DNA of 64,000 nucleotides from an uncultured bacterium (GTDB taxonomy: Bacteria > Hydrothermota > Tepidihabitantia > Tepidihabitantales > DTDR01), in contig CAZDHW010000003.1 in the NCBI GenBank assembly GCA_964505415.1, forward strand, positions 7,438 through 71,437, written 5' to 3'. Both the position numbers and the translations under genes were made by a program. The notes under the pieces are model-generated. The model worked only from the letters and a program-made list of their open reading frames with translations, did no database searches and was not told the DNA's origin. Below, piece by piece: positions 6,455 to 41,074 of this stretch; position 1 is the stretch's first letter; the number at the start of each line of letters is the position of its first letter.

Positions 6455-7749
6455 AAACCATAAAGAAGATAAAGTAAGAAAGCACTGGCAAAAGTTCCCA
6501 TTAAGGAAAAAGGTAATCCTAACTTAAAGAAATCAAAGAAACCAACTTTTATTCCCTTTCTTTTTAAATAACCGACACCAACAATATTAGCGGAAGCACC
6601 AAAGGGAGTAATATTGCCACCGATTGTGGAGGCAATTAACGAAACAAACATAAAAAGATAAAATAATTTTCCTTGGGGATAAAAAAGTTTTATCAATTCC
6701 GAGATTAACAAAAAGAAAGGAACATTATCCATAAAAGAAGAGAATAATAAAGAAAAGAAAATGAGTAGACAATAGATAACAATTGGCTTGGAAAGAAAGA
6801 GACTTTTTAAAAACTCTTTCAAAAGTAAAAGCCCGCCACCAGCTTTAAAAATACCGATAAGAATAAAAACACCAATTAAAAAAAGCACTGTTTCGTAATC
6901 AACAATTTTTAAAAAATCAATAGGTTTTATCAATTTGAAGAGAAAAAGAAAAAGTAATGTTAAAAGAGCATAAAAAAGAGAAATGAGGGCAGCGTAAAAA
7001 AGATAATTATTTCCTTTAAAAATTCGGGGAAAGATCGCCAAACTTAAGATAAAAAGGATAAGAATAATTAAAAAAAAATACCCTTTCTTTTTTCTTTTCT
7101 CTTTTTCCTTTTCTATTCTCGACCGGCTTAACTGTTCATTCCTCAGCGGTTTAAGAATTAAATAAATAGTCAACAAAGAAAAGAGAAAGCCAAATTGAAT
7201 AATAAAGAATAAAGATGGTTTTCCTTGAAAGATAAAAAAGTCTAAAAAATCTAAATTAGCCTTTTCGGCTAAAATCATACTTGGTGGGTCACCAATCAAA
7301 GTTGCTGAACCTTGAAGATTACTAGCCAAACAGAGAGGGATGATAAAATTTAAGGGCGAAGTTCGGAAAGTTTGCGCCAAAGAGAAGGCAATAGGTGCCA
7401 AAATTAAAACTACACAGGCATTTTCTAAAAAGATTGATAAAAAACCGCTAAAAAGAGTAAAAAGAATTATTGAAGAGAATAAACTCCGGCTTTTATTGGC
7501 AAGAAAAAGGGCAATCCTTTTGGGAATTTCCGATAAAAAAAAACCTTCGGCAACAATAAAAGTACCTATAAAAAGCATAATAACATTAAAATCGATAAAA
7601 GAAAAATAGGCTGATAAAGAAAAACCAAAGAAAAGAAAAAGAATAAGAAAACTATAAAGAATATACAAGCGGAATTTAAAAAAGATAGCCATTGAAAGGT
7701 AACATAAGAAAAAAAGAATGAAGATTAATATGGTCATTCTATTCGACAA
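6451..7749 (-). CDS. ArsB/NhaD/SLC13-family ion or carboxylate permease
   Basis: Multi-TM; SNLQGSATLIGDPP, SSFMDNVP and GGNITPFGASANIV motifs. Confidence 0.8.
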   Translation of the reverse strand: MSNRMTILIFILFFLCYLSMAIFFKFRLYILYSFLILFLFFGFSLSAYFSFIDFNVIMLFIGTFIVAEGFFLSEIPKRIALFLANKSRSLFSSIILFTLFSGFLSIFLENACVVLILAPIAFSLAQTFRTSPLNFIIPLCLASNLQGSATLIGDPPSMILAEKANLDFLDFFIFQGKPSLFFIIQFGFLFSLLTIYLILKPLRNEQLSRSRIEKEKEKRKKKGYFFLIILILFILSLAIFPRIFKGNNYLFYAALISLFYALLTLLFLFLFKLIKPIDFLKIVDYETVLFLIGVFILIGIFKAGGGLLLLKEFLKSLFLSKPIVIYCLLIFFSLLFSSFMDNVPFFLLISELIKLFYPQGKLFYLFMFVSLIASTIGGNITPFGASANIVGVGYLKRKGIKVGFFDFFKLGLPFSLMGTFASAFLLYLLYGL

Positions 7750-8336
7750 AGAACTTCCGATTGATTATCATATTCCTTTTTTATTATTCCCACTTCGGGA
7801 GCTAAATAATATAAATAAATTAAAGAATCACAATTTTTACCAATAATTTCCTTTTCCTTTATCATTACCGAATAGACATCGGCAAAAGAGCCATAGGGAA
7901 TTCTTAAAGTATCTCTTTTTAACACTTTACCAGTTAAATAAAATTTGGCAGTATCTTGAATAACCGAATCTTGCCATTCCTCTCCTTCAACCAAAGGAAA
8001 AGAAAGAAAAGTAACAAGACCTTTGTATAAAGTCTCAATCTCCCCAAAAACTAACGATTCCCGACAGACAAATTTTTGAAGCCTAAATTTTTCTTTTATA
8101 AAAAATATTGGTTCAAAATTACTTTCGCAGTAAAACATGGATGTCCCGAAAAAGAAGGTGTCGCCAATAAATTTAAAAATTATTGTATCTTCTAAAGAAG
8201 AGTAATAGTAATAGGCTTTTCCTTTTTCTAAAGGAAAATAATCACCAGTTGCCCGGTTTAACAAAGTATCTTTTTGACAAAAAGAAAAGAGGATAAAAAA
8301 GAAAATCAGTTTTTTAAAATTCATAACCAACACCAA
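7734..8336 (-). CDS. Hypothetical lipoprotein
   Basis: KKLIFFFILFSFC lipobox-like signal; DYFPLEKG...YYLAPEVGIIK pattern. Confidence 0.6.
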   Translation of the reverse strand: MVLVMNFKKLIFFFILFSFCQKDTLLNRATGDYFPLEKGKAYYYYSSLEDTIIFKFIGDTFFFGTSMFYCESNFEPIFFIKEKFRLQKFVCRESLVFGEIETLYKGLVTFLSFPLVEGEEWQDSVIQDTAKFYLTGKVLKRDTLRIPYGSFADVYSVMIKEKEIIGKNCDSLIYLYYLAPEVGIIKKEYDNQSEVLCRIE

Positions 8337-8805
8337 TTTTGGGGCTTAAAAAATAATAATAATTTATTTTTTCTTGCCAATTTAATCTCTCAGGAATAAT
8401 GGTAAGGGATATCTTTAAAAGAAAAATCACTTTTTTTGACTTTTCTTTATAAGAAAAACCTAAGGAATAACCTAAATAATCTCCTTTTTCTTCTTTAAGA
8501 TTGATTTTTCTTATAAACGAAAGATAAGCAAGGGCCAATAAAAAATTTAATTTTTTATCTTTAATTTTTAAAAAATTTGGCTCCAATTCAATTTTTGGCT
8601 CTAAAAAATAGAGAGAAGAATATTGGTTGTTCAATTTTGAATAAGAAAAAGAAAGAGATAAATCAATTTTTTTTATTTCTTTTGATAAAAAAATACCAAA
8701 AGAAGGTGCTGGATAATAATATCTTTGTAATCTAAAAAGGGGAGTAATATCGCCCAATAAAAAACCAACTTCGGAATAATTAAATAAAATTAAAAGAAAA
8801 AGCAT
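8314..8805 (-). CDS. Hypothetical protein, possible small outer-membrane beta-barrel
   Basis: Amphipathic beta-strand pattern; C-terminal IGVGYEF; leaderless-type promoter just upstream. Confidence 0.5.
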   Translation of the reverse strand: MLFLLILFNYSEVGFLLGDITPLFRLQRYYYPAPSFGIFLSKEIKKIDLSLSFSYSKLNNQYSSLYFLEPKIELEPNFLKIKDKKLNFLLALAYLSFIRKINLKEEKGDYLGYSLGFSYKEKSKKVIFLLKISLTIIPERLNWQEKINYYYFLSPKIGVGYEF

Positions 8806-8842: not shown

Positions 8843-8871
8843 TTGACTTTTAATTAAAAAGGTCCTATATT
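8843..8871 (+). promoter_or_regulatory. sigma70 promoter for riboswitch-IPCT/DIPPS transcript (divergent from the 8805 promoter)
   Basis: TTGACT(8843-8848)-17 nt-TATATT(8866-8871). Confidence 0.7.
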
Positions 8872-8884
8872 AATATAGTTATAC

Positions 8885-9022
8885 CAATGCCGAATCGGCA
8901 TTTTCAAAAATGCTGAGCGGGGGATAAATATGCCTTCTAAAAAGAAGGCTTGGGGTGAAGGCGAAAGCCGGGCTACTCTTTCGGCCTAACCCGACAACTA
9001 ACCCCGTAGGCGAAAGAAAGAG
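8885..9022 (+). ncRNA. c-di-AMP riboswitch (ydaO/yuaA class)
   Basis: Conserved blocks GCCGAATC...GAGCGGGGGA...TGGGGTGAA...GGGCTACTCT...CCCGACAACTAACCCCGTAGGC; stems TCGGCATTTT/AAAATGCTGA, GCCTTCT/AGAAGGC, GGC-GAAA-GCC; pseudoknot CTCTTTC(8976-8982)/GAAAGAG(9016-9022). Confidence 0.9.
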
Positions 9023-9068
9023 GTCTTAAATTAAAGACCTCAAAATTAGAAAATAAAAAAGTTTAAAA

Positions 9069-10355
9069 ATGAAGGCAATTATTTTGGCTGCTGGAAAAGG
9101 TGAACGAATGAATTCTTCCCTTGTGAAACCTTTACATCGAGTACTCGGGCTTTCTTTAATTGAAAGGGTAATTCTTCCTTTATTAAAAGTCGGAATTAAA
9201 GAGATAATCGTCGTTTTGGGCTATAAAGGGAAAGAGATTGAAAACTATTTAAAGAAAAAATTTAAGGATATAAATTTTCAGTTTGTTTATAATAATGATT
9301 ATGAAAAAGGCAATGGTGCTTCTTTTCTTTTGGCTTTTGAAACACTTAAAGAAAATGAGCCTTTTCTTTTACTGATGGCTGATCATATTTACTCACCCAC
9401 AATTATTGAAAGACTTTTAAAAGCCGATGGTTCTTTTATTGTGGTTAACCAAAACTTTTCTTTAATAAGAGACCTAACGGCAGAAACCAAAGTAAAAATT
9501 AATAATGGTTATCTGGTTGATATTGGCAAAGATTTGAAAGATTTTGATGGTGTTGATTGTGGTATCTTTCTTTTGCGAAAAAAAGATTGTCAATTAAATA
9601 ATAATGGAAAAGAATCGGAGTTGAGTTTAGTCATTAAAGAATATCTTAAAAAAGAAAAAATAAAAGCCTTTTATTTGAAGAAGGATGAATATGTTTTTAA
9701 CATTAATGATAAAGAAAGTAAAAAATGGGCAAGTAATTATCTCTTAAATCATTGTGGCAAAAAGGAAGACGGAATAATTAGTAGGAATATCAACCGGAAA
9801 ATTTCTAAATTGTTTACTCAACTTTTAATCAATTTAAACTGCTCACCCATTGTTTTTACGATTATAAATTTTCTTTTAACGATTGTGGCAGCTTTCAGTT
9901 TTTTCTTCTCTAATATTTTGGGAGCCCTTTTGGTGCAATTAGTATCGATTCTTGATGGGGTTGATGGTGAGATTGCGCGGTTAAAATTGGCGACTACCAA
10001 ATTTGGTGCCTATTTAGATGCCGTTCTTGACCGCTACGGTGATATGATAATTATGCTTTCTTTAGCTTCAGCCCATTATCTAAAAACCAATCAGAATTTG
10101 ATCTTTTTTTGGACAATTTTAGCCCTTCTTGGTTCTAATATGTCAATGATTTTAAAAGAAAAAGAGAAACTTTTGTTTTCTTATAATTTTACTAACCCCC
10201 TCTTACCGCCTTCGCGGGACCTTCGGCTTTTTTTAATCTTTCTTTTTGGCCTTTTTAATCAGCTTTTTCCTTTAGTTATCTTTTTAGCACTTTTTACCAA
10301 TCTGGGGGTTTTAATAAGGATTCTTTTGGTAAAAAGATTCGCTAAGGAAGATTAA
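9069..10355 (+). CDS. Bifunctional IPCT/DIPPS (NTP transferase + CDP-alcohol phosphotransferase), di-myo-inositol-phosphate synthesis family
   Basis: N-term AIILAAGKGERM...KPL; C-term DGIISRNINRKIS and DGVDGEIAR...FGAYLDAVLDRYGD. Confidence 0.82.
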   Translation: MKAIILAAGKGERMNSSLVKPLHRVLGLSLIERVILPLLKVGIKEIIVVLGYKGKEIENYLKKKFKDINFQFVYNNDYEKGNGASFLLAFETLKENEPFLLLMADHIYSPTIIERLLKADGSFIVVNQNFSLIRDLTAETKVKINNGYLVDIGKDLKDFDGVDCGIFLLRKKDCQLNNNGKESELSLVIKEYLKKEKIKAFYLKKDEYVFNINDKESKKWASNYLLNHCGKKEDGIISRNINRKISKLFTQLLINLNCSPIVFTIINFLLTIVAAFSFFFSNILGALLVQLVSILDGVDGEIARLKLATTKFGAYLDAVLDRYGDMIIMLSLASAHYLKTNQNLIFFWTILALLGSNMSMILKEKEKLLFSYNFTNPLLPPSRDLRLFLIFLFGLFNQLFPLVIFLALFTNLGVLIRILLVKRFAKED

Positions 10356-11666
10356 AATAATTAAGAAGAGAGCAAAGAAAAAGGCAAATTCCTTTTTGAG
10401 TTTGATTAAGGGAAAAATCTGGGAAAAATAATGGATTAAAATGATTAGGATTTTTATTAAGAAATTTAAAGTTTGAGAAAAGATAAGGGCAAAGAAAGGG
10501 AAAAAGAAGTTAAAGAAAAGCACCAAAAGAATTAGCGGTAAAATCAAGGCAACCAATGGGAGAACAATAAGATTAGCAATAATTGGAGCAGTTGGTAAGG
10601 CTTTAAAAGAATAGATAATCACTGGTGCGGTAGCTAAATAGGCCGATAAAGAGATAAGCAAGGGTTCAAAAAGATATTTTTTTAAGAACTGATTTTTAAT
10701 TTTTAAAAAGTTTTTCGCTAAAGGGTAAAAATATAAAATTCCAAAAGTGGCTAAGAAAGAAAGTAAAAAACTGATATTAAATAAATTTAAAGGTGAAAAT
10801 AGAAAGATTAATATTCCAGCATTCAAAAGATTATTTAACGGTAAAGTTTTTCGCTTTAAAAAATAAGAAAGGGTAACAAAGAGAAACATTAAACCGGCTC
10901 TTAAAATTGAAGGGCGGAAAGAGCAGAGACCAGCATAAATAAAAAGAATAATTATTAAAAGAAAATAACGATAGGAAAAAGGAATTCTTAAAATACTTAA
11001 AAATAAAAGTGAAACAAAAGCCAGAATGTGAATATGAAGTCCAGAAACGGCTAAAAGATGATAAAGACCAGTTTTTTTAAAATCTTCTTTTATTTTGCTA
11101 TCTAATTCTTTTTTATCACCAAGAAAAATCCCTAAAACAATCGCGGCATTTTCTTTTTCTAAATATTTATAAAATATCTTTGTTATTGCTTTTTTTATTT
11201 TTTCAAAAATTTTTATTTCTTTCTTTTTCTCTTCTTTCAATAAGAAAAAATCATTAACCAAATAAAGATTTTGCTTGGTCAATTTTCCATAAAATATTAT
11301 TTCTTTGTCAATGTCGAAATTTTCTTTTGTTTTCCAAAAAGCCTTTTCGTTGATAAAATAAAAATTATCATGATGGTAATATTCGGTTAATTCCAAATAA
11401 TAACTTCCTTTATGTTTTCCCTTAATTTTCCCTTTAAAAATACCTTCTTCAATCTTTATCTTTTTGGGTAATAAAAGAGAGTGATAGAAGCTTGAAGCAA
11501 GAAAAAAAAGAAGATAATAAAGAGAGGCTTGTTTTTTAAAACAAAAATAAAGAAAGGGTAAAATTAATAAAATAAAGAAAGGCTTAAAATTTATTATCGT
11601 AGCAAAAAGAATAGAAAAAATTAATAAAAGGAAGATTTTAAAGGATGGAAAAGAAAAATTATTCAA
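10311..11666 (-). CDS. comEC: ComEC/Rec2-family competence protein (no MBL domain)
   Basis: GLYHLLAVSGLH, PSILRA and SFLLSFLAT motifs; multi-TM. Confidence 0.85.
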   Translation of the reverse strand: MNNFSFPSFKIFLLLIFSILFATIINFKPFFILLILPFLYFCFKKQASLYYLLFFLASSFYHSLLLPKKIKIEEGIFKGKIKGKHKGSYYLELTEYYHHDNFYFINEKAFWKTKENFDIDKEIIFYGKLTKQNLYLVNDFFLLKEEKKKEIKIFEKIKKAITKIFYKYLEKENAAIVLGIFLGDKKELDSKIKEDFKKTGLYHLLAVSGLHIHILAFVSLLFLSILRIPFSYRYFLLIIILFIYAGLCSFRPSILRAGLMFLFVTLSYFLKRKTLPLNNLLNAGILIFLFSPLNLFNISFLLSFLATFGILYFYPLAKNFLKIKNQFLKKYLFEPLLISLSAYLATAPVIIYSFKALPTAPIIANLIVLPLVALILPLILLVLFFNFFFPFFALIFSQTLNFLIKILIILIHYFSQIFPLIKLKKEFAFFFALFLIILIFLSESFYQKNPY

Positions 11667-19322: not shown

Positions 19323-19397
19323 TGGCGCCACAGGGATTTGAACCCTGATCTTCAGGTTGAGAACCTGATGTCCTAAACCAGGTTAGACGATGGCGCC
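19323..19397 (-). tRNA. tRNA-Glu (anticodon CTC), CCA not encoded
   Basis: GGCGCCA/TGGCGCC acceptor stem; anticodon arm TCAGG-TTCTCAA-CCTGA; T-arm CAGGG-TTCAAAT-CCCTG. Confidence 0.95.
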
Positions 19398-40709: not shown

Positions 40710-40720
40710 AAATTTCTTTA

Positions 40721-41074
40721 TGGAGGCGGCGGGAATCGAACCCGCGTCCGGAGTGTTTCGGGTTTAGGCTCTACATGGTTAGTCGGTTTATTTTTCTCGC
40801 AAGGTTCTTCGCCAACCGACAGGCAGAACCTTGCCAGTTGCCTTTTAAGATCCGGTCTTCCTTCGGCAACTAAAAGAAGACCTTAAGCATCCATTTTTAA
40901 CCTCAACTTAGGTCGGATGCGAACCTAAGCGAGGCTGCTGCTTTTAATTAAGCAGCAAGGGCGTAACTACCAGTGTTGGCAGTTGTTTTTTCCTCTATTT
41001 TTTACGGTAAAATAGAGGAAAACCGCCATGCTCCTAAACCCTGCCATCACCCCGTCGAAACCCATTTCGCCCCC
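40721..41074 (-). ncRNA. ssrA: tmRNA; tag ANTGSYALAA*
   Basis: 5' GGGGGCGAAATGGGTTTCGACGGG; 3' GGACGCGGGTTCGATTCCCGCCGCCTCCA; tag reading frame 40980-40948. Confidence 0.96.

Follow-up and report, generated by a model that had tools for sequence, protein, structure and literature searches.

We report here a complete aptamer of the cyclic di-AMP (c-di-AMP) riboswitch class in the 5' leader of an IPCT/DIPPS-family gene, in which a CTP:inositol-1-phosphate cytidylyltransferase (IPCT) is fused to a CDP-inositol phosphotransferase (DIPPS). The locus lies in a stretch of 64,000 nucleotides from an uncultured bacterium (GenBank assembly GCA_964505415.1, contig CAZDHW010000003.1, positions 7,438 to 71,437 of the forward strand), here called the window; coordinates below are positions in it. 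We confirm that the pair of aptamer and gene is conserved, co-distributed, and specific to one lineage. With a probability of roughly one half, we read the locus as a functional OFF riboswitch that acts at the level of translation or mRNA fate on a gene for the synthesis of the anionic solute di-myo-inositol phosphate (DIP). Synthesis of a CDP-inositol-derived product would then be tied to the level of c-di-AMP, that is, to the potassium and turgor state of the cell, and this product would most likely be di-myo-inositol phosphate phosphate (DIPP), from which DIP would be formed. An earlier note, made from the letters of the window, had proposed that c-di-AMP gates the synthesis of DIP in a diderm thermophile of a candidate phylum. 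Its aptamer, the position of the aptamer, the gene family, and the genome context are borne out, whereas gating by c-di-AMP, the direction of the switch, and DIP as the product are what we infer.

The aptamer, its target gene, and their distribution

When the whole window was scanned against Rfam (cmscan), the c-di-AMP aptamer RF00379 was matched at 60.3 bits (E 1.7e-11), above the gathering score of 38 bits. The match covers model positions 1-134 of 134 and is not truncated; it is one of three RNAs found in the window and the only RF00379 copy in the genome (Table 1). The helices of the aptamer were recovered by an alignment of nine distinct homologous leaders, from which L118 and L120, duplicates of L008 and L006, as well as L007, too short to reach the pseudoknot strand, were left out. 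In this alignment, 17 of the 40 consensus pairs stay paired through changes on both sides, for example, C-G to U-A in P1 of L121 and G-C to A-U in the CGGGGG/CCCCG helix of L009 and L010. According to passages of PMC11963983, the pseudoknot of the class is formed by pairing of a hairpin loop with the 3' tail and caps one ligand site. Here, the loop CUCUUUC and the tail GAAAGAG are invariant in the nine aligned homologues, which come from the genus and family of the window (f1) and from a second family (f4). In a third family (f19), the pairing is kept with other letters (loop CUUCC, tail GGAAG or GGGAG). The aptamer is real and a regular member of RF00379, complete as the earlier note had described it, and it is predicted to bind c-di-AMP.

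The aptamer was also correctly placed between a sigma-70-like promoter and the gene: the promoter-like site ends 7 nucleotides (nt) 5' of the RF00379 match, and the gene starts 42 nt 3' of it. Taken by itself, the promoter scan is not above chance in this AT-rich stretch, with seven sites compared with 6.4 expected from shuffles. By eye, a TTGAYW/TAnnnT pair stands at the same position before the aptamer in all nine distinct homologous leaders.

The open reading frame (ORF) downstream of the aptamer encodes 428 amino acids, with the Pfam domains NTP_transf_3 at residues 3-121 and CDP-OH_P_transf at residues 260-362. It aligns from end to end with the NCBIfam model of bifunctional IPCT/DIPPS, NF041135 (298.6 bits, residues 1-423 on model positions 1-418 of 419). 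Its best solved relative is the IPCT/DIPPS of A. fulgidus (4mnd_A, E 3.9e-56, residues 1-418), and the best solved match of the N-terminal half alone is the A. fulgidus IPCT (2xme_A, E 2.5e-25). On this evidence, the IPCT/DIPPS-family identity that had been proposed for the gene stands. The CDP-alcohol signature, given as D-x2-D-G-x2-A-R...G-x3-D-x3-D in passages of PMC4634129, is intact as D296-G-x2-D299-G-x2-A-R304-x8-G313-x3-D317-x3-D321, and D296, D299, G300, A303, R304, G313, D317, and D321 are invariant across 21 diverse homologues.

Table 1. Features of the riboswitch locus, in window coordinates.
Feature	Positions	Strand	Basis or sequence
Sigma-70-like promoter	8843-8871	+	TTGACT (8843-8848), 17-nt spacer, TATATT (8866-8871); consensus scan 10 of 12
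c-di-AMP riboswitch aptamer (predicted ligand)	8878-9027	+	RF00379; P1 formed by 8888-8891 with 9009-9012
Hairpin loop CUCUUUC, 5' partner of the long-range pseudoknot	8976-8982	+	Complementary to 9016-9022
Pseudoknot 3' strand GAAAGAG	9016-9022	+	Sequence complementarity; duplex energy -6.7 kcal/mol at 37 °C
Hairpin H	9020-9041	+	GAGGUCUU / AAAUUA / AAGACCUC; directly 3' of the aptamer; no U-tract after it
A-rich unstructured leader without a Shine-Dalgarno motif	9042-9068	+	Read directly
IPCT/DIPPS-family ORF	9069-10355	+	428 amino acids
N-terminal cytidylyltransferase (IPCT-like) domain	9069-9743	+	NTP_transf_3, 69 bits
C-terminal membrane CDP-alcohol phosphotransferase (DIPPS-like) domain, stop codon included	9765-10355	+	CDP-OH_P_transf, 46.3 bits

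The distribution of the pair was followed in 41 genomes of the order, the window's own included. RF00379 was found in eight of them, one copy each, at 57.9-87.1 bits: in four of the six genomes of the window's genus (in f1) and in all four of f4. A homologue of the gene lies directly 3' of the aptamer at seven of these loci, and at the eighth the contig ends at the aptamer; the downstream proteins are 68-70% identical to that of the window within the genus and 44-46% in f4, and overall the identity goes down to 44-47%. Conversely, a protein search of the same genomes found the gene in eight, namely, the same seven and G032. Both elements are thus present in seven genomes, the riboswitch only in one (the contig end), the gene only in one (G032), and neither in 32. 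The copy in G032, where no RF00379 was found, is 35% identical and groups with Dadabacteria and Terriglobia outside the WOR-3 clade; judged by its sequence, it is a copy of separate origin. A scan of metagenomes with a 32-nt conserved word of the aptamer gave four contigs, all with the gene downstream, of which two look the same as known leaders and one is a new f4-like variant. The pairing that the earlier note had drawn from a single locus is real: it is conserved and co-distributed in two families of one WOR-3 order.

Fused genes of this kind are far more widespread than the pair. We compared the best 80 of at least 555 IPCT/DIPPS-like loci on one-genome-per-species contigs, which include Archaeoglobus, Thermococcus, Aquificota, Thermotogae, thermophilic Bacillota, and many lineages that are not known to be thermophilic; upstream sequence amounted to at least 1000 bases at 70 loci and to less than 500 at 10. 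Among these 80, RF00379 was found at one, which belongs to a WOR-3 genome from the same genus as the window. That riboswitch and gene were transferred together out of Bacillota was considered and rejected: the nearest relatives of the enzyme are in thermophilic Bacillota, and none of their loci in this set carries RF00379.

Across the phylum, RF00379 was found in 9 of 151 sampled genomes, in f1, f4, and f19. The six copies in f19 precede APC-family permeases (AA_permease_2), KdpA, and a periplasmic binding protein; we take AA_permease_2 to be the family of Bacillus subtilis YdaO/KimA. KdpA and an APC-family permease are classic K+ targets, so c-di-AMP riboswitches, and with them the ligand system, belong to the ordinary repertoire of the phylum. 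Of the order's 41 genomes, 39 encode a DAC domain. The sole aptamer copy of the f1 and f4 genomes is placed on the IPCT/DIPPS-family gene. One genome, G053, has three aptamers within 12 kb.

We regard it as most improbable that the aptamer is a decaying or ligand-blind relic without a regulatory role. Scores of 58-87 bits in eight genomes, compensatory changes in the helices across lineages whose proteins are ~45% identical, strict co-distribution with the gene, and the conserved position of the promoter all argue against a relic, whereas it would fit a leader without a recognizable terminator or Shine-Dalgarno sequestration, as well as the f4 genome G015, which keeps a 76-bit aptamer before a gene copy with an in-frame stop. 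In that copy, a stop follows directly after the ATG, a further in-frame TAA is present, and the gene is in two pieces; either the gene is decaying or this is an assembly error in a 250-contig bin.

As for the surroundings of the locus, the gene and a ComEC-like gene that converges on it (minus strand, 10311-11666; 183 bits for the Competence domain) overlap at their 3' ends by 45 bases (10311-10355). Divergent from the riboswitch are two ORFs on the minus strand, of 163 amino acids (8314-8805) and 200 amino acids (7734-8336), with a strong promoter-like site of their own (TTGACT-16-TATAAT, 11 of 12). Neither matched a Pfam or NCBIfam family. The C terminus of the 163-amino acid protein (...GVGYEF) recalls an outer-membrane beta-barrel signal, and the N terminus of the 200-amino acid protein, a hydrophobic stretch ending in Cys, has a lipoprotein-like look. 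As partners in the pathway, the two were rejected, given synteny within the genus only, none in f4, and no assigned family. The remaining Rfam matches in the window, both on the minus strand, are a full-length tmRNA (40718-41074, 192.2 bits) and a tRNA (19323-19397, 65.8 bits).

Host genome and probable product of the enzyme

The assembly that contains the window (1.50 Mb, 97% complete, 31.9% G+C) encodes the two enzymes that the earlier note had looked to the genome for. One is a single diadenylate cyclase of CdaA type on contig C25 (DAC 131.7 bits, with a CdaA_N domain). The other is an inositol-1-phosphate synthase (MIPS) in a 362-amino acid ORF on contig C20, with a thymidylate kinase and a metallo-beta-lactamase-fold gene as neighbors; PF01658 matched it at 129.7 bits, although the N-terminal MIPS domain PF07994 had no match in the genome. 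A TrkA_C/RCK_C protein is also encoded. For phosphodiesterases, the PgpH type (PF07698) had no match in the genome, and other types were not searched.

The description of the host as a diderm thermophile of a candidate phylum agrees with its genome. An Omp85/BamA-like protein (136 bits) points to a diderm, and close protein relatives are named candidate division WOR-3. Reverse gyrase was found above the cut-off, a stringency at which only four thermophiles among the control genomes were matched, and the IVYWREL fraction is 0.436 over 945 crude ORFs, which by the Zeldovich relation we take to correspond to ~74 °C. The DNA is present in runs labelled hot-springs metagenome, two of which are maybe its source, and 0.28 of the sampled words are present in a third hot-springs run from a separate study. 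In a search for RNA runs that contain the locus, none was found.

Given a functional enzyme, we consider a solute to be its probable product. At 428 amino acids, the protein equals the six-helix soluble-acceptor enzymes in length, and it appears to lack extra C-terminal helices, which go with lipid acceptors in passages of PMC4634129. The same passages assign the binding of the phosphate of an inositol-phosphate acceptor to two conserved arginines, one of them in an RxxR motif. Across the 21 diverse homologues, R383-x-x-R386 does not vary and at least 90% share R417, and equivalents of R383, R386, and R417 are also seen in AfDIPPS and AF2299 in printed alignments. By sequence context, these three residues may be equated with the acceptor-site arginines of RsPIPS (PMC4634129).

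The genome further encodes a phosphatidylinositol-phosphate (PIP)-synthase-like transferase of 189 amino acids on contig C7 (archaetidylinositol-phosphate synthase 153 bits, phosphatidylinositol-phosphate synthase 119.8 bits, both below cut-off). This gene is found in 40 of the 41 genomes of the order, and MIPS is found in all 41 at 78-98% identity. A separate lipid route by MIPS and the PIP-synthase-like gene is thus core to the order, whereas the fused gene is accessory (8 of 41), which favors a solute as the product of the latter. The two core genes also suggest inositol phospholipids throughout this WOR-3 order; bacterial production of inositol lipids is called relatively rare in passages of PMC9246714.

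The riboswitch could be functional on an enzyme that does not make DIP. Under this alternative, which we think unlikely, the product would be an inositol lipid head group (BEPIS-like) or a polyol phosphodiester, for example, glycero-phospho-inositol, and the riboswitch would regulate the composition of the envelope or another solute. In Rhodothermus marinus, inositol lipids are made by way of CDP-inositol, and such a route has been proposed for Bacteroidetes (passages of PMC4587543 and PMC9246714), and cell-envelope genes are often under c-di-AMP riboswitches (passages of PMC7266159). That route, which we compared by description, resembles the present case in that an NTP-transferase makes CDP-inositol and a CDP-alcohol phosphotransferase passes it on. 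However, its cytidylyltransferase and transferase are encoded by separate genes that lie in an operon with MIPS (PMC4587543), in the Bacteroidetes case also with a HAD hydrolase (PMC4587543 and PMC9246714), as far as the passages describe them. Here, by contrast, the two domains are in one fused gene, MIPS is on another contig among unrelated genes, and a PIP-synthase-like gene is already present. A lipid route is already given without the fused gene, and the conserved arginines, if correctly equated with the acceptor-phosphate site, and the apparent lack of lipid-type helices argue in the same direction.

A number of findings weigh against DIP as the product, and several of them would fit the alternative. 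No IMPase-family phosphatase (PF00459) was found in the 97%-complete genome, whereas all 14 control genomes gave a match, so that another phosphatase would be needed for the last step from DIPP to DIP. When the C-terminal domain is taken alone, its best solved match, AF2299, the function of which is not known, scores slightly higher (98.3 bits) than AfDIPPS (85.7 bits). Enzymes related to the 428-amino acid protein are spread widely among lineages that are not known to be thermophilic, and reverse gyrase was found in none of the four f4 genomes, which carry the pair. Finally, the 428-amino acid protein does not reach the NF041135 cut-off of 580. This shortfall says little, because the model was built for and is specific to Thermococcales, and its cut-off was also missed by all 14 control genomes, T. 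maritima included.

In a tree of 84 of 86 proteins (two fragments of <380 amino acids dropped; quick search, SH-aLRT support only), the riboswitch-linked WOR-3 clade (support 100) adjoins thermophilic Bacillota (support 98). The clade of Archaeoglobus, Thermococcus, and Aquificota (support 100) stands apart from this group, a separation that would suit a different product, and a Thermotogae sequence lies deeper in the large sister group of the tree. Characterized DIPP synthases presumably come from both sides of the tree. Fused IPCT/DIPPS-like genes occur in at least 555 species-level genomes, among them Scalindua, Nitrospina, Acidobacteriota, Zixibacteria, Desulfobacterales, and Asgard archaea. 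This spread goes well beyond the "above 55 °C" rule, as cited in a passage of PMC8397731.

Expression platform and switch direction

The platform of the riboswitch is atypical and sets a hairpin against the pseudoknot. The first three bases of hairpin H (GAG, 9020-9022) are the last three of the pseudoknot strand. H folds in all seven leaders that reach it; in f4 it takes the form GAGGCAC/GUGCCUC or GAGGCA/UGCCUC, with inner pairs changed on both sides, and the pair of columns 170-183 within H is UA in five sequences and CG in four (alifold). Its predicted stability at 65 °C is -4.9 kcal/mol, which becomes 0.0 when the pseudoknot strand is withheld. Because H overlaps the pseudoknot strand and is unstable without it, the two should be mutually exclusive alternatives according to the folding predictions, and H should exist only without ligand.

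In the OFF reading that we favor, the pseudoknot strand GAAAGAG(G) would be held in H when ligand is absent, the A-rich initiation region would be open, and the gene would be translated. When c-di-AMP is supplied by the CdaA-type cyclase, the aptamer would capture the strand in the pseudoknot and H would fall apart. The freed arms of H would then form weak pairs with the initiation region or reduce expression in some other way, which would make this an OFF switch on translation or mRNA fate and not on intrinsic termination.

Two other read-outs were rejected. Intrinsic termination would require a U-tract after H, and there is none in any of the nine leaders; a terminator scan flags H on the minus strand only. 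On that strand, H followed by TTTCTTTC resembles an intrinsic terminator, the T-run being complementary to the riboswitch's conserved purine linker; this may be a by-product or a stop for antisense transcription through the gene. We likewise rejected a leader peptide that would begin downstream of GAGG in the pseudoknot strand: GUG or UUG is present in the four f4-type leaders with differing frames and lengths, and none is present in f1.

The clearest example of the OFF design in the phylum is an f19 leader, L109 (genome G075, ~1620-1700), before an APC-family permease that is presumed to be a K+ importer. Its pseudoknot strand is the 5' arm of a hairpin, and the 3' arm holds CAUUUUUUC, the exact 9-nt complement of GAAAAAAUG just before the start codon. 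In folding predictions, L109 switches from one pairing to the other depending on whether the pseudoknot strand is included, as is expected of the classic three-part OFF design. Much weaker third pairings are seen in leaders of the IPCT/DIPPS-family gene (CUCUU/AAGAG in L008 and L009; AGACCU/AGGGUU and GUCUU/AAGGC in L119), and the predicted accessibility of the start region at 37 °C drops in L008 (0.69 to 0.51) and in L009 (0.82 to 0.57). The natural c-di-AMP riboswitches described in passages of PMC11963983 and PMC9337991 are all OFF, and high c-di-AMP is taken as "not in osmotic distress" in those of PMC9337991.

Other features of the leaders count against such an OFF switch. A canonical platform was not found: there is neither a U-tract after H nor a Shine-Dalgarno motif in or near the pseudoknot strand, which ends 46 nt before the start codon. 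For the leader in the window itself, start-region accessibility is predicted to be unchanged at 37 °C (0.66 with and 0.64 without the pseudoknot strand), and a convincing sequestering partner is predicted only in some relatives. The Shine-Dalgarno motif of the f4 leaders (AGGAG) abuts the 3' end of H, with the 3' arm of which it cannot pair. By analogy, the layout of H against the pseudoknot is the same as that of an engineered ON version, since a stem-loop competing with the pseudoknot was used to make an ON c-di-AMP sensor from a natural OFF riboswitch (passages of PMC11963983). In f1, H is followed by an A-rich stretch of 27-36 bases. Over the f1 start codon, a weak AU hairpin is built from codons fixed by the protein and is gone at 65 °C. 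The use of Shine-Dalgarno motifs in the genome is low, with GGAG or GAGG upstream of 22% of the 945 crude ORFs compared with a background of 5%.

The same aptamer and gene might instead form an ON switch, although we doubt it. H would then lock the pseudoknot strand at low c-di-AMP and lower temperature, ligand would raise expression, and DIP, an anion, would be made as a counter-ion when K+, and hence c-di-AMP, is high. H, which is strongly conserved, shares 3 nt with the pseudoknot strand, as in a competitor of the engineered kind; H is marginal at its predicted 65 °C stability and could add temperature dependence; and for the window's leader no repressing structure is predicted in the ligand-bound state. 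However, the Shine-Dalgarno motif is masked by the stem-loop in the engineered switch, while H does not cover any initiation signal, and the hairpin formed by the same strand before the f19 K+ importer shows a clear third pairing of the OFF type. A natural ON riboswitch for c-di-AMP does not appear in the passages of PMC11963983 and PMC9337991, and the meaning given to high c-di-AMP in those of PMC9337991, a cell not in osmotic distress, speaks against solute synthesis being turned on. On balance, OFF is favored over ON, roughly 2.5 to 1.

Less probable again is a compound logic, in which H would be both competitor and thermometer, the response to c-di-AMP would set in only once heat loosens H, and ligand would turn synthesis ON. 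If true, this would couple the anionic thermoprotectant DIP to heat and K+ load, and bacterial DIP synthesis would have its first known regulator in this locus, which would also be the first c-di-AMP riboswitch of ON type found in nature.

Comparison with known systems and implications

The element shares with the RF00379 class, as known from B. subtilis kimA/ydaO and Thermoanaerobacter pseudethanolicus, the full-length match, the pseudo-symmetric covarying helices, the loop-tail pseudoknot, the purine-rich 3' tail, the location in a 5' leader, and a CdaA-type cyclase in the host. The WOR-3 host phylum and the target gene are new. The platforms differ: B. subtilis has an intrinsic terminator and the present leader has none. 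In Thermoanaerobacter, the tail strand is itself the Shine-Dalgarno motif, giving a translational OFF switch (passages of PMC11963983), whereas here the strand is overlapped by a conserved hairpin and the start codon is distant. Known targets of the class are K+ and amino-acid transporters, cell-wall remodelling, and osmotic-shock genes (passages of PMC7266159).

The closest regulatory parallel is Dehalobacter, in which a gene for the N-epsilon-acetyl-beta-lysine precursor is preceded by a Na+ and a c-di-AMP riboswitch in tandem (passages of PMC9337991). In both cases, a c-di-AMP riboswitch stands before a gene for the biosynthesis of a compatible solute, here a probable one, and not before a transporter, and the logic described for Dehalobacter, that high c-di-AMP means no osmotic distress and synthesis is turned off, is that of an OFF switch. 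The Dehalobacter system is transcriptional with terminators, has a tandem Na+ sensor, and makes a zwitterionic solute in a mesophilic Firmicute; the present locus has a single aptamer, no terminator, and a thermophilic host, and its product would be an anionic inositol phosphodiester. The novelty claimed in the earlier note is narrowed by this case. A full-text literature search found no c-di-AMP riboswitch paired with IPCT/DIPPS or inositol and no work on c-di-AMP in WOR-3, the gene lists of Nelson 2013 and Block 2010, which may list the pairing, being outside that search; a c-di-AMP riboswitch on osmolyte biosynthesis, on the other hand, had already been published. What we add is that the riboswitch is recruited to an IPCT/DIPPS-family gene in thermophilic WOR-3 bacteria, the general idea being already in print.

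On the side of the enzyme, the IPCT/DIPPS proteins of (hyper)thermophiles (A. fulgidus AF0263, 4MND; NF041135) are likewise fused, are of the same length, and align from end to end with the protein described here, in which the CDP-alcohol motif is intact and basic residues of the putative acceptor site are conserved, and MIPS is encoded in the genome. The protein differs from them in its identity of ~35-38%, its separate clade, its score below the equivalog cut-off, and the lack of a detected IMPase-type DIPP phosphatase. In Thermococcales, the IPCT/DIPPS gene is under a heat-shock repressor and not under an RNA switch.

In archaea, DIP is regulated via a heat-shock repressor. For bacteria, to our knowledge, the regulation of DIP, a solute characteristic of life at high temperature, is not known. 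The locus described here is a concrete and testable candidate for such a regulator, which would connect DIP with the messenger in control of potassium and turgor. Because the DIP anion needs K+ as its counter-ion, it would be tidy physiology for a single signal to control the uptake of K+ and the synthesis of DIP together. The compact leader, in which a hairpin is set against a pseudoknot, could serve as a scaffold for heat-stable sensors. With our results, the range of c-di-AMP riboswitches comes to include the uncultured phylum WOR-3 and a thermophile.

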